Below, in pieces: positions 1 to 8,225 of a DNA stretch of 64,000 bases; the stretch's first letter is position 1, and each line of letters begins with the position of its first letter. Under the pieces are notes generated by a model. That model saw only the letters and a list, made by a program, of their open reading frames with translations. It was not told where the DNA came from and ran no database searches. Source of the DNA: a virus. Taxonomy: Duplodnaviria; Caudoviricetes. The position numbers were made by a program, and so were the translations under genes. The stretch spans positions 64,211 to 128,210 of IMG/VR virus record IMGVR_UViG_3300017821_000056; one strand, written 5' to 3'.

Positions 1-52
1 CCGGCCGCCATCCACGAGCAAGCTAGTTACGGCAAGGGGGGTGATGCCCCCT

Positions 53-1053
53 ATGTCGACGCCGCTGCCCCTGGGTCTTACTCCGTATATATCTCCTACG
101 ACCCTGCTCACGGCGCCGACATTATCGAAATTGGAATTGATTTTAGTTCGATACCTTCGGGCGACTACACCCAGCCTACGGAAAACTGGGCCGAGTGGTG
201 GAACATGACGGCCAGGGCCACGTCGCGTGTCGACGGCTATTGTTCCCAGGTCTTGCGTGCCACCATCGACACTGAGCCGCTGCACGGCCCGGACTACCGG
301 GTCACCGTGGGCCCCGCTGCGGGCGGATCGTACCCGACGCCGTACTGGGGGAACTCCGGGGCGCAGAACGCGCGGCTGATCCTGTCCCGGTGGCCGGTGC
401 TGCAGGTGACGAACGTGGCGACCTGCCCGAACTCGCTGTGGCCAAGGTCGTGGACGAACCTGCCGGCCGGGTACTACGAGCCCGAGGTGCCCACTCTCGG
501 CGTGTACGGCTCCATCTCCCCGGCCGGGTCCGCTGACGGGGGGCAGGCGATCCTGGTCGGCGGCGGGTACATCGACTGGTCTTACGGGCGTAACGGGTGG
601 GCGATCCTGGTCACCTATATCAACGGGTGGCCGCACTGCTCCCTCACCTCGGCTGTGGCGGCAGGGGCCACGTCGCTGCCGGTGAACGACTGCACCGGGT
701 GGGGGATAACGGACTACAACAGCGTCTTCACCGGGGCGACCGGCCGGATCGTGGACTCGGGCGCCCAGGAAGCCATCCACGTCACGGCCACGTCGGCGGC
801 GTCGGGGCCGGGGAACCTGACCCTCTCCTCGCCGCTGAATTTCGCCCACACCGCGCAGACGCTTGTCACTACCTTGCCGGCGTCGATCGAGCAGGCGTGC
901 ATCCTGTTCTGCGTCGCGGAGGCCCTGACGAGGGGGGCGACGACGACGACGATCCATGACATCGGCGGGCACGCGCAGTCCACCGGGGGGGACGTGGCAG
1001 GGCTGACAGCGGAGGCCGAGCTCTTGTGCCATCCGTTCCGCAGAACTGTATAA
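53..1053 (+). CDS. Head-to-tail adaptor-like virion protein; 5' end apparently split by an 11-nt TTA-initiated gap (122-132)
   Basis: GGGGGGTGA SD-like run, then ATG53 (MSTPLPLGLTPYISPTTLLTAPT). Coding resumes in the frame of ORF 205 at GGA133 (GIDFSSIP...). C-terminal ...LPASIEQACIL...AELLCHPFRR is adaptor-like; gene lies upstream of tail genes. Confidence 0.6.
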
Positions 1054-1094
1054 GTCTCGGTATGGAGTGGCGAGTCATTTTGCTACAGTGGGGC

Positions 1095-1808
1095 ATGGCA
1101 ACCTGCACAGCAGCCGATGACTGCGAGAAGCCCCCGTTCCGGCGCGGCTGGTGCTCCATGCACTACTCGCGATGGCAGCGGTACGGCGACTTCACCACCG
1201 TAAATAAGCCCGGCAACCCTCGGCAACTAGGCGACTGCCACCTCTGCGACAAGCCGGCTCTCGCCCGCGACATGTGCATCAAGCACTACACCCGCTGGCA
1301 GCGGTACGGCGACCCGACGGTTACGAAGCTAGATCGGGACCGCACGCCAGAGGAGCGCTTCTGGCCGCGCGTCAACAAGGACGGTCCAGTATCCGCTCAC
1401 CGGCCCGACCTCGGCCCGTGCTGGGTGTGGACCGGCGGCCTCGCAGAGGGCTACGGGATGTTCTGGCTCGACGGCCGCAACATCCACGCGCACATCGTGT
1501 CCTTCACTTGGGAGTACGGCGACATCCCCGAAGGCTGGGAGCGCGACCATCTCTGCCGCAACCGTGCATGCGTGCGACCTGACCATCTTGAAGCCGTAAC
1601 CCACTGGACAAACGTGGCGCGCGGCATCTCTCCGCACGGGCTGAACGCGGCCAAGACGAAGTGCCGTAACGGCCATGACTTCACGCCGGAAAACACGCGC
1701 GTGAATAGCAAGGGCCAGCGCGTTTGCATCGCCTGCGCTCGCGCAGCATGTTTGCGGTGGTACCACCGTCAGCGCCAGACGGAACCGGTGGCCGACGCCC
1801 TGTTCTAA
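1095..1808 (+). CDS. Free-standing HNH homing endonuclease
   Basis: CWVWTG...YG, DHLCRNRACVRPDHLEAVTHWTN, KCRNGH..CIAC; two N-terminal C..HY.RW.RYGD repeats; TACAGT -10 at 1084 suggests a leaderless start. Confidence 0.9.
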   Translation: MATCTAADDCEKPPFRRGWCSMHYSRWQRYGDFTTVNKPGNPRQLGDCHLCDKPALARDMCIKHYTRWQRYGDPTVTKLDRDRTPEERFWPRVNKDGPVSAHRPDLGPCWVWTGGLAEGYGMFWLDGRNIHAHIVSFTWEYGDIPEGWERDHLCRNRACVRPDHLEAVTHWTNVARGISPHGLNAAKTKCRNGHDFTPENTRVNSKGQRVCIACARAACLRWYHRQRQTEPVADALF

Positions 1809-2306: not shown

Positions 2307-2768
2307 ATGTCCTGCGGGAAGACGGTCACCCGGAGGCAGGCCAAAGCCCGCACCAGTTCCGCCCGCGCACACCAGGCCAGGCGAGCCGCTACTCCCTCCG
2401 CGAAAGCGGCGAAGGCCCGGTACCGGCAGCAGTCCTACGCCGCGTTCGTCCGCCAGCTGAGGCACTACTACCACGTCCGCCACCTCCAGCACGTCGCCCA
2501 CCAGGCCGCTGCGGCAGCGCAGGCCCCGCACCCGGCTAAGCGCCGGGCCGCCCGCGCAGCAGCCCGGCACGGCGTCACGTCGCGGATCCGGTGCAAGCAG
2601 AAGACCCGCAAGGCCGCGGTCGTCCGCAAGGGGCCGGCGAAGAAGAAGACGGCCCCGGCGAAGTCCAGGGCTGTCAAGGCGGCGGCAGGGAGAAGGGCAG
2701 CCCTTCCCTCTGCCGGGGTGCGCGCGGCACGGTCGGCACGGTCGGCGCGGGCGAGGCGGGGACGTTAG
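2307..2768 (+). CDS. Highly basic Arg/Lys/Ala-rich protein (histone-like composition)
   Basis: GGAGG 2297-2301 then ATG2307; almost no acidic residues. Confidence 0.55.
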   Translation: MSCGKTVTRRQAKARTSSARAHQARRAATPSAKAAKARYRQQSYAAFVRQLRHYYHVRHLQHVAHQAAAAAQAPHPAKRRAARAAARHGVTSRIRCKQKTRKAAVVRKGPAKKKTAPAKSRAVKAAAGRRAALPSAGVRAARSARSARARRGR

Positions 2769-7010: not shown

Positions 7011-8225
7011 ATGGCTAGGCTTATGTGGCACTCATGTGCTCCGTGGTCTGCCAGTTTAAAATGCGGATACGGAACCCAGACCGCGATCTGGACCCGGAAG
7101 CTCAAGGAAATGGGCCATGAGGTCCTGATCAGCAATTTCTGGGGACTGCATGGCTGTTCCCTGGAATGGAACGGCATCCCGGTGCTGCCCGCGTTCGGCG
7201 GGTCGTACTGCACCCCGTCGCTCGCCCAGCATGCGAAGCACGCGGACCCGGACCTGATCATCTGCCTGGGTGACATCTGGCCGATGGACCCGTCGCTGAT
7301 GGCCGGGCTGCCTTTGGCGCACTGGCTGCCGTCGGACTGCCGGCCGATGTCGATGGCGGACCGGGAGAAGGCGGAGGCGGCGGGGCCGCAGCTGATCGCG
7401 ATGTCCCGGTTCGGGGAGGCCCGGTTCCGGGCGGCCGGGTTCCGGGATGTCCGGTACGTGCCGCACGGCATCGACCTGGAGGCGTTCAGGCCGCCGGAGG
7501 ACCGGGACGCGCTCCGGAAGGCGGCGGGGCTGGACGGGGCGTTCGTGGTGGGCGCGAACATGGCCAACAATGACGCGATCCGCAAGGCATTGCCCGAGAT
7601 CATGCTGGCGTTCGCCCGGTTCCACTCCGACCATCCGGATGCGCTGCTGGCCCTGCACACGGGGGTGCACCAGGACGGCGGCCAGGACCTGGAGGCGATC
7701 GCGGAGAACCTGGGGATCACGGACCGGTGCAAGGTGGTGGACCAGTACCGGTACACGTCCGGGTTCGTCACCGAGGAGGACCTGCGCGGCTGGTACGGGA
7801 CGGTTGACGTGCTGTGCGCGGCGTCGTACGCGGAGGGGTTCGGGCTGCCGATCGTGGAAGCCCAGGCCGTCGGCTGCCCGGTGATCACGACGGCGTGCTC
7901 GAGCATGGAAGAGCTTAACCCGCTGGGGATCTCGGTGGACGGCTCGCCATTTTGGAATGGCGTCCATCGCGCCTGGTGGGTCCGCCCCGACGTCCGCGGG
8001 CTTTACGAGGCGTTCTGCCTGGCATACGAAAACCGCGACAGCGTGGACCGGGGGAAGCTGCGGGAGTTCGCGGCCGGCAACTACGAGGTGGGCCACGTGG
8101 CGGAAACGTACATGAAGCCCGTCGTCGATGAGCTTCTGGAAGTTATGGCACAGCGGCGCGGGAAGCGCCCGGAACTACAGGAAGCAGGCGCGGATGCGGA
8201 TAACGCTGCCGTCGAAGCAGGCTGA
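7011..8225 (+). CDS. GT-B (family 4-like) glycosyltransferase
   Basis: GYG near N-terminus, VPHGID, ASYAEGFGLPIVEAQAVGCPVI. Confidence 0.9.
   Translation: MARLMWHSCAPWSASLKCGYGTQTAIWTRKLKEMGHEVLISNFWGLHGCSLEWNGIPVLPAFGGSYCTPSLAQHAKHADPDLIICLGDIWPMDPSLMAGLPLAHWLPSDCRPMSMADREKAEAAGPQLIAMSRFGEARFRAAGFRDVRYVPHGIDLEAFRPPEDRDALRKAAGLDGAFVVGANMANNDAIRKALPEIMLAFARFHSDHPDALLALHTGVHQDGGQDLEAIAENLGITDRCKVVDQYRYTSGFVTEEDLRGWYGTVDVLCAASYAEGFGLPIVEAQAVGCPVITTACSSMEELNPLGISVDGSPFWNGVHRAWWVRPDVRGLYEAFCLAYENRDSVDRGKLREFAAGNYEVGHVAETYMKPVVDELLEVMAQRRGKRPELQEAGADADNAAVEAG

Follow-up and report, generated by a model that had tools for sequence, protein, structure and literature searches.

A UUA-led coding gap in the head-to-tail adaptor gene of an uncultured high-GC soil phage, probably crossed by translational bypassing at a putative homing endonuclease target

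Introduction

How could a virion protein be made from a gene whose reading frame is broken by a few extra nucleotides (nt) inside a conserved motif? The question is raised by positions 53 to 1053 of a 64,000-nt stretch of DNA (the window), which forms the second half of the 128,210-bp virus record IMGVR_UViG_3300017821_000056. The record stems from an uncultured high-GC soil phage, carries direct terminal repeats, has 68.7% G+C and is rated 100% complete. A preliminary description of this DNA had proposed that a likely head-tail adaptor gene starting at ATG53 needs an 11-nt translational bypass at a TTA codon. In the present study we propose that 53-1053 is one gap-interrupted adaptor gene, which would be read by an 11-nt hop of the ribosome, and that the interrupted site is a hot spot representing the target of an endonuclease encoded upstream; we give this reading a probability of about three in four.

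Programmed translational bypassing is, to our knowledge, among the rarest decoding events. The published cases are T4 gene 60 and its relatives, the 'byps' of yeast mitochondria and three Streptomyces phage or prophage terminase genes; work on the terminases has stalled for want of material. Bypass initiated at UUA is described for the terminase of phiHau3 (g6/7/8), for StrepC.1 and for S. catenulae prophages, so that short UUA-led bypasses have been published for three genes with four sites, all of them terminases (Antonov et al. 2023, PMC10732093). The UUA-triggered bypass of phiHau3 was proposed by Smith et al. 2013 (J Bacteriol 195:4924), as cited in PMC10732093; its full-length product was found in Streptomyces, and the junction peptide in E. 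coli with UAA replacing UUA (PMC10732093). The 50-nt bypassed insert of T4 gene 60 protects against MobA (Bonocora et al. 2011 PNAS, as cited in bioRxiv 10.1101/2022.08.31.505936), and hopping at hungry codons has been described in E. coli reporters (Gallant & Lindsley 1998 PNAS; Gallant et al. 2004 J Mol Biol, both as cited in 10.1101/2022.08.31.505936).

Results

The interrupted reading frame

From ATG53, frame 2 reads GCG CCG ACA (119-121) TTA (122-124) TCG AAA TTG..., runs through a further TTA (143-145) and ends with TGA (206-208). Frame 1 reads ...GADIIEIGIDFSSIPSGDYTQPTENWAEWWNMTARATS... on to TAA 1051-1053, and from GGA133 corresponds to GIDFSSIP.... Deleting 122-132, or equivalently 121-131, joins ...LLTAPT to GIDFSSIP... 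and to the 282-aa open reading frame (ORF) called from ATG205, which gives a joined gene of 329 aa. In all these points the preliminary description had read the sequence correctly.

A search of 5.8 billion proteins returned 502 relatives falling into two length classes. Members of the 328-331-aa class (P0011, P0007, P0004 and others) begin MTTPLPLGLAPYISPTTLLTAPTGIDW/F...; P0011 reads MTTPLPLGLAPYISPTTLLTAPTGIDW... and P0007 ...APTGIDFSTIPSGDD..., and the APTGI motif named in the preliminary description is thus real. These intact homologues run ...LLTAPTGIDW/F... unbroken, that is, they correspond to frame 2 of the window up to ACA121 followed by frame 1 from GGA133 with nothing in between, and 122-132 are therefore extra bases. 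Removal of the latter restores collinearity (...LLTAPTGIDFSS... in the window, ...TAPTGIDW/F... in the homologues), and not one intact homologue has extra residues at the APTGID junction. The 282-288-aa class starts at an internal Met (MAEIWNM...) and is a gene-calling artefact of similar interruptions in other contigs. No match was found in a nucleotide search of GenBank phages, nor a second copy of the window allele in IMG/VR by an exact 29-nt search, and the sole match in cellular genomes was a distant homologue on a contig of an Actinomycetes metagenome-assembled genome.

Two other starts were considered and rejected. Frame 1 meets a stop 17 nt upstream of the window and offers no ATG, GTG, TTG or CTG before ATG205, which rules out the upstream start that the preliminary description had kept as a caveat; the -1 shift named in the same caveat is still compatible with the window and is weighed below. 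A start at ATG205 is ruled out by homology and by selection upstream of it. The intact homologues extend 47 residues upstream of the equivalent Met, and they align with the frame-2 N-terminus instead of the frame-1 stretch ...GADIIEIGID, so that neither of the alignments that would have spoken against a bypass is found.

A hot spot of short gaps in related loci

Related loci were taken from IMG/VR, from metagenomes by means of search patterns lying far from the site, and from contigs of the closest relatives of the window. By tblastn with P0011, 46 loci were taken as intact and 36 as interrupted, and 26 others ran off the end of their contig. After inspection, L087 and L047 were moved from the intact group because they have in-frame gaps with stops, and L027 and L115-L117 were also classed as interrupted. 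L005 and L066, whose indels are of an ordinary kind and lie in other parts of the gene, were set aside. About 40 of about 85 assessable loci are interrupted, a share (40 in 85) that is no population frequency, the metagenome query having been built from interrupted-class proteins. They contain 28 distinct gap alleles of 5-26 nt at codons 23-28 (APTGIDWS), besides one second gap site at Gly33; the alleles are not all phylogenetically independent, and well-supported branches force at least nine changes of state. The TTA bypass proposed for the window is thereby supported by some 40 related loci of the same design, examples of which are given in Table 1.

The composition of the gaps follows codon-level rules. 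An in-frame TTA opens 24 of the 28 alleles and TAG two more. Outside the gaps TTA occurs three times in 20,896 codons of 69 distinct family genes (0.14 per 1000), one of the three being the in-frame gap of L087 and the other two the in-frame TTA repeats of the distant L101, and TTA-led gaps are far beyond chance. Of 26 alleles, 25 have A or T as the 3' base of the take-off codon, whereas the same four codons end in this way in 39 of 112 cases among intact alleles (Fisher p 3.5e-9). At the landing site, 18 of 23 alleles have a triplet ahead of the resume codon that agrees with the take-off codon at position 2 and in wobble class (binomial p about 1e-12), and in eight the two are synonymous. Moreover, the base after TTA is G or A in 18/24 alleles, creating a stop in the +1 frame. 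The related loci have a common design, with take-off from a weak codon, UUA or UAG directly after it, and a near-cognate triplet for landing.

Gap lengths (5, 7, 8, 10, 11, 12, 15, 16, 23 and 26 nt) represent all three classes modulo 3, and a stop in the downstream frame lies directly 5' of the landing triplet in L006, L012, L018, L025, L039, L043, L044, L079, L087 and L116. Single-base frameshifting is thus not a general solution and cannot rescue those loci. In L059 (165-320) and L060 (1883-2000) two TTA gaps with synonymous codon pairs stand seven codons apart and would need two successive hops. The ACA...ATT arrangement of the window is shared by L087 and L116, in both of which TGA closes the downstream frame just before ATT. 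Some relatives have GGAGG or AGGA inside the gap. The TCGAAA of the window gap recurs within the 26-nt gap of L039, which suggests that the window gap may be a shortened derivative.

Homing endonucleases often accompany introns, and we also considered whether the gap is removed or avoided before translation, by excision of a mini-intron from the RNA or by transcriptional slippage, or is an artefact of assembly. A search of Rfam gave neither an intron nor any other RNA family in the vicinity of the gap, gaps of unrelated sequence and down to 5-7 nt cannot form a ribozyme, and there is no homopolymer on which a polymerase could slip; furthermore, an in-frame TTA/TAG rule and codon-level rules for take-off and landing make sense only for a ribosome. 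Assembly error is ruled out by the recurrence of the same design in contigs of many independent samples and assemblers, and real errors look different: L005 (ENA ERZ25039484) has several scattered single-base indels typical of uncorrected long-read assembly, L066 a single 1-nt deletion at about codon 57 (270-290), and neither resembles the hot-spot gaps, each being an ordinary error or mutation. This whole group of explanations is scarcely credible.

Two further arrangements were seen in the survey. L052, L053 and L093, from three samples, have at codon 28 a 2-nt interruption without TTA or stop (TCT/CC.., UCU to the overlapping UCC, a +2 shift), which adjoins a LAGLIDADG gene. The distant homologue L101 (37% identity, on a 146-kb contig; 2387-2540) has in its N-terminal region in-frame TGG TTA GGT TGG and GCC TTA GGC GCC; these repeats, with identical codons flanking TTAGGY, are candidate in-frame 9-nt hops for which both decoding outcomes would stay in frame.

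Selection on the two halves of the gene

Both halves of the interrupted gene are under purifying selection. The ratio of non-synonymous to synonymous polymorphism (pN/pS) is 0.24 in codons 2-22 among 26 interrupted loci, and 0.19-0.33 in the 18-19 codons from the resume codon to the internal Met, which have no start of their own. Both halves are thus probably translated, and the second would be reached from the first.

These values bear on the possibility that the gene is simply split or truncated, so that only a 282-aa protein is made from ATG205, with or without a separate 51-aa peptide, or that it is a pseudogene of a defective phage. It is true that ATG205 exists and that gene callers annotate 282-288-aa products in dozens of contigs. 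However, the roughly 24 codons between the gap and ATG205 contain no in-frame start and are nevertheless conserved, as are codons 1-23; apart from the gap, about 40 interrupted loci have an undamaged gene, random frameshifts elsewhere being confined to L005 and L066; and a complete genome with terminal repeats does not look like that of a defective phage. We regard truncation as very improbable.

The product as a head-to-tail adaptor

A model of the intact homologue P0011 was obtained with AlphaFold2 from an alignment of 67 sequences (predicted local distance difference test, pLDDT, 87.7), a first model from eight close sequences having been useless (pLDDT 32). In VIA-align, residues about 6-329 of the model match the neck protein of phage 812 (8q01_b, Z 9.8), the head-to-tail interface of Mycofy1 (9lw9_D, 9.1), RcGTA 6tba_2A (9.1), Mu 5ydn (8.7) and HK97 gp6 (3jvo, 7.8); these Z values are moderate. 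'Gp6 domain' entries of BFVD match the model down to E 2e-7, and residues 188-272 form an extra, inserted beta-barrel. No PDB entry was matched by Foldseek below E 1e-3, and no sequence match for the adaptor was found in Pfam, PHROG or PDB. The protein is 24% identical to gp8 of Arthrobacter phage Mufasa8, annotated as 'head-to-tail adaptor' and encoded two genes after the major capsid gene. The whole-chain matches agree with an adaptor fold, in which N- and C-terminal helices pack as they do in gp6, SPP1 gp15 or the neck subunits of Mu; the predicted fold thus supports the assignment made in the preliminary description, and the product is probably an HK97 gp6-like head-to-tail adaptor.

The neighbours of the gene in the source genome are mostly unannotatable. 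Genes for a nucleotide-sugar epimerase, a FabG-like reductase and a glycosyltransferase lie within a few kb of it (L114:7736-9482; window 7011-8222), which suggests a glycosylation module among the structural genes.

Homing endonuclease genes and the origin of the gaps

The adaptor gene of the window is preceded by a gene for a LAGLIDADG-type homing endonuclease (Table 1), which ends 27 nt before ATG53. A homologue lies directly upstream of the adaptor also in L004, L039, L041, L042, L048, L052/L093 and L087, and a remnant in L018/L070, while the only truly intact loci with such a gene are L045 and L051. Counted by allele, an upstream LAGLIDADG gene accompanies 9/29 interrupted and 2/30 intact alleles (p 0.02).

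The pair L038/L039 is instructive in this respect. L039 has both the endonuclease and a 26-nt gap and L038 has neither, the gap-free allele reading ...GCTCCCACAGGAATTGACTGG.... Starting exactly at the landing codon, the two are 98.8% identical over 912 nt (the first 60/60 nt), whereas only 49/69 nt are shared in codons 1-23 and identity is 81% further upstream. On this comparison the recombination breakpoint is placed exactly at the gap, as would be expected if the nuclease makes a break at codons 23-26 that is repaired by copying of the donor leftwards from there, the endonuclease gene included. The distribution of interrupted and intact states on the tree of the post-gap protein requires 12 changes or more, and gap type differs between close relatives. 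The hot spot could be where the LAGLIDADG enzyme of the gene directly upstream cuts. An insert of a few nucleotides would abolish this site and leave the protein unchanged, in the way in which T4 gene 60 escapes MobA by its 50-nt gap, and the gaps would outlast loss of the endonuclease gene. They appear to mark the cutting site of a neighbouring selfish endonuclease gene.

A second endonuclease gene, of the HNH type, overlaps the 3' end of the adaptor gene. Its homologue is found at the same place in L038 and is absent from the near-twin L039, so that two mobile nuclease genes, independent of each other, lie on either side of the adaptor gene. The N-terminal CxxC...HY.RW..GD zinc-finger repeats of the HNH protein resemble the N-terminus of the LAGLIDADG protein (about 44% identity over about 80 aa). 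Window 91-180, covering the gap and the first codons after it, is an AT-rich patch of 43-47% G+C, against about 68%, and the post-gap codons GGA ATT GAT TTT AGT TCG ATA are an unusual choice for this genome; the patch may be a foreign co-conversion tract.

The published alternative for such a gap is that of a sensor. In our case the adaptor would be made only while the host tRNA decoding UUA is scarce, a growth-phase signal of the bldA kind, and the endonuclease would be coincidental. An inverse bldA logic, which the preliminary description had also considered, is a hypothesis of Smith et al. 2013 and Antonov et al. 2023 for the phiHau3 terminase (as presented in PMC10732093), and the 20 interrupted alleles without an adjacent endonuclease gene speak for it. 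On the other hand, L041 and L050 use UAG, and L047 and L052 have neither UUA nor UAG directly after the take-off codon, which misfits a sensor of tRNA-Leu; close relatives switch between intact and different gap types; and both the L038/L039 breakpoint and the endonuclease enrichment point to a cause at the DNA level. Mainly regulatory gaps therefore seem rather unlikely to us, even though the sensor and immunity roles are not mutually exclusive.

Proposed mechanism and its weak points

In the mechanism that we propose, a ribosome carrying peptidyl-tRNA-Thr on ACA (119-121) would stall because the UUA in its A site is very rare and presumably slowly decoded in this high-GC system and the phage has no tRNA genes. 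The peptidyl-tRNA would release the mRNA, the mRNA would slide by 11 nt, and decoding would restart at GGA (133-135), giving ...LLTAPT-GIDFSSIP... with the junction peptide ...TLLTAPTGIDFSSIPSGDY.... Ribosomes that decode UUA normally would finish at TGA206 with a 51-aa peptide. Known tailed phages have about 12 adaptor copies per virion, so that a modest hop efficiency could suffice. ARAGORN finds no tRNA gene in the whole 128-kb genome, and decoding of the approximately 39 in-frame TTA codons of a crude ORF set is thus wholly dependent on the host; TTA usage in the genome is 0.83 per 1000 codons. A crude scan of the 128-kb phage for other TTA-led frame switches gave only ordinary TTATG junctions, with a filter that missed the adaptor site too and is not exhaustive.

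Several observations weigh against this reading. The landing triplet ATT matches ACA at position 1 only; as AUU it would pair there with the Thr anticodon, with a possible G.U at position 2, and so belongs to the minority class, together with that of L087 and L116. This poor fit, already noted in the preliminary description, makes the exact hop coordinates of the window less certain and leaves the design seen across the family untouched. The junction would read APT-IEI-GIDF after a +2 slip and APT-IIEI-GIDF after a -1 slip, and no frame-1 stop blocks either slip in the window. No Shine-Dalgarno-like motif was seen upstream of the take-off site at 119. The pairing of the skipped bases with 147-153 proposed in the preliminary description exists as an exact 7-bp reverse complement of 123-129, but the local fold is no more stable than that of shuffled sequence (z = -0.88), and the hairpin was rejected as a signal; the longer gaps of L116, L039, L041 and L079 also fold unremarkably (z between -1.4 and +1.1). 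The slow decoding of UUA is a deduction from codon usage. Finally, the association with the endonuclease is partial, given the 20 interrupted alleles that have lost the adjacent LAGLIDADG gene or never had it and the two intact ones with it, and the query bias of the survey has to be kept in mind.

The open frame across the gap leads to a rival mechanism, a programmed +2 or -1 frameshift at ACA-UUA in place of the hop, by which the adaptor would gain 3-4 residues. Frame 1 is open throughout 100-135, AUU at 121-123 would re-pair as weakly as AUU at 130-132, and a hungry codon in the A site is a known trigger of frameshifting. Nevertheless, a slippery heptamer (X XXY YYZ) is lacking in 100-140, and the sequence downstream of it shows no significant fold. 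A shift of 1-2 nt would rescue neither the relatives with stops before the landing triplet, nor the stop-containing in-frame gaps of L087 and L047, nor gaps of every class modulo 3, and the extra residues which it predicts at APTGID are seen in no intact homologue. A frameshift is thus an improbable account of the window, and the 11-nt hop is preferred.

Table 1. Features of the adaptor locus in the window and gap alleles of related loci. Alleles are written as take-off codon/gap including landing triplet/resume codon.
Feature	Position	Strand	Remarks
3' end of 361-aa LAGLIDADG-type homing endonuclease gene	1..26 (whole gene: L001 441-1526 = window -1059..26)	+	Pfam LAGLIDADG_3 E 2.3e-5; PHROG 4645 endonuclease E 5e-28
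Shine-Dalgarno-like GGGGGGTGAT	36..45	+	Read from sequence, ahead of ATG53; relatives have GGAGGTGATG at the same place
Adaptor ORF part 1, codons 1-23, frame 2, MSTPLPLGLTPYISPTTLLTAPT	53..121	+	Collinear with residues 1-23 of intact homologues
Proposed take-off codon ACA (Thr23)	119..121	+	Last codon agreeing with homologues
11-nt coding gap TTATCGAAATT	122..132	+	TTA 122-124 would be in the A site, ATT 130-132 before the resume codon; absent from intact homologues
Inverted repeat TATCGAA / TTCGATA	123..153	+	7-bp complementarity exact, fold not significant
Adaptor ORF part 2, frame 1, GIDFSSIPSGDY...	133..1053	+	Homology to intact proteins starts at GGA133; stop TAA 1051-1053
TGA	206..208	+	Ends the 51-aa zero-frame product if TTA122 is decoded normally
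HNH homing endonuclease gene	1026..1808	+	Overlaps adaptor 3' end (last 9 codons); Pfam HNH_3 E 3e-11; PHROG 826 E 5.6e-44
Window allele			ACA/TTATCGAA ATT/GGA; 11 nt
L020 allele			ACT/TT ACC/GGC
L027 allele			ACA/TTAG ACG/GGC
L063, L077 allele			GAT/TTAG GAC/TGG
L018 allele			GAT/TTAATGC GAC/TGG
L048 allele			ATT/TTAG CTC/GAC
L055 allele			GGT/TTAC CGC/ATC
L039 allele			ACA/TTAGCGGAGGGCCTCGAAAGTAA ACC/GGA; 26 nt
L041 allele	about 2418-2446		ACA/TAG...CCA/GGA; 26 nt; stop codon instead of TTA
L050 allele	about 121-128		ACC/TAG CC/GGC; stop codon instead of TTA
L059, L060 tandem alleles			GAT/TTAGCGG GAC/TGG ... GGT/TTAG GGC/GAC
L047 allele	codons 26-30		GAT/CAA CCG TAG GAC/TGG; in-frame 12-nt insert, matched Asp codons
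L087 allele			ACA/TTAGGGCCGTGA ATT/GGG; in-frame, with TGA
L116 allele			ACA/TTAGCGGAGGGCTTCCGTGA ATT/GGC; protein 80% identical

Discussion

The interrupted adaptor gene combines features of systems that are known separately. As in phiHau3, whose sites we read directly as GGC/TTACTCC GGT/AAG and TCT/TTAACGG TCC/ACG, an in-frame UUA follows right after the last conserved codon, and the reading frame disrupted by the short non-coding block is that of an essential virion-assembly gene of a high-GC phage. In both cases the protein is collinear with intact homologues once the block is skipped, and in most relatives of the window the landing triplet is synonymous or near-cognate, as it is in phiHau3 (GGC to GGT, TCT to TCC). 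The block measures 7-10 nt in the published terminases, 11 nt in the window and 5-26 nt in the relatives, and the natural UAG alleles found here parallel the replacement of UUA by UAA in E. coli for phiHau3 (PMC10732093). On the other hand, the gene encodes a head-tail adaptor and not a terminase, it belongs to an uncultured lineage with a genome of about 128 kb, and the landing triplet of the window is not cognate. In contrast to the four sites published in three genes, a single hot spot here has 28 alleles, among which are natural UAG variants, double gaps in tandem and gaps of 23-26 nt. A homing endonuclease gene is adjacent here, whereas none is mentioned for phiHau3, and we found no endonuclease flanking the phiHau3 terminase gene apart from the usual HNH gp1.

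With T4 gene 60 and MobA the locus shares a free-standing endonuclease gene directly upstream of an essential gene that has a gap in a conserved motif. The gap allele and the endonuclease seem to travel together, as in L038/L039, and by analogy the implied role would be self-protection with an unaltered protein. The differences are clear: the endonuclease is LAGLIDADG and not HNH, the gap measures 11 and not 50 nt, a sense UUA instead of a UAG stop follows the take-off codon, there is no significant hairpin and no demonstrated nascent-peptide signal, and ACA/ATT of the window are unmatched whereas gene 60 has matched GGA codons. By this analogy the window locus would work like a T4 gene 60/MobA cassette without being a member of that system. 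As in hungry-codon hopping in E. coli, a starved A-site codon would free the peptidyl-tRNA to re-pair downstream; there, however, the events were of low efficiency and in synthetic constructs, whereas the present arrangement is kept by selection in natural essential genes.

A literature search found no paper that joins UUA-led bypass to the logic of an endonuclease cassette or describes the adaptor gene of the window. The new elements are the adaptor gene itself, the hot spot of 28 alleles, the natural UAG and tandem variants, and the linkage to an endonuclease with a mapped breakpoint. With a new gene and dozens of natural gaps at one site, a comparison of alleles can show which sequence rules govern take-off and landing. 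The natural alleles may display such rules, namely NNU/NNA at take-off, NNC at landing, tolerance of a first-position mismatch, interchangeable UUA and UAG, and a purine after UUA that gives a +1 stop; we consider the chances to be even that they do, and this idea is tied to the following one.

Protection from a neighbouring endonuclease provides a concrete origin for the gaps, which competes with or complements the published sensing of growth phase through UUA. Short gaps led by UUA or a stop might be a general immunity scar of homing endonucleases in high-GC actinophages, hidden from the protein by hopping, a generalization about which we are evenly divided. If true, it would unite both published kinds of phage bypassing, that of phiHau3 and that of T4 gene 60. 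Furthermore, gene callers cut these genes to 282-288 aa in many metagenomes, and essential phage genes are consequently mis-annotated.

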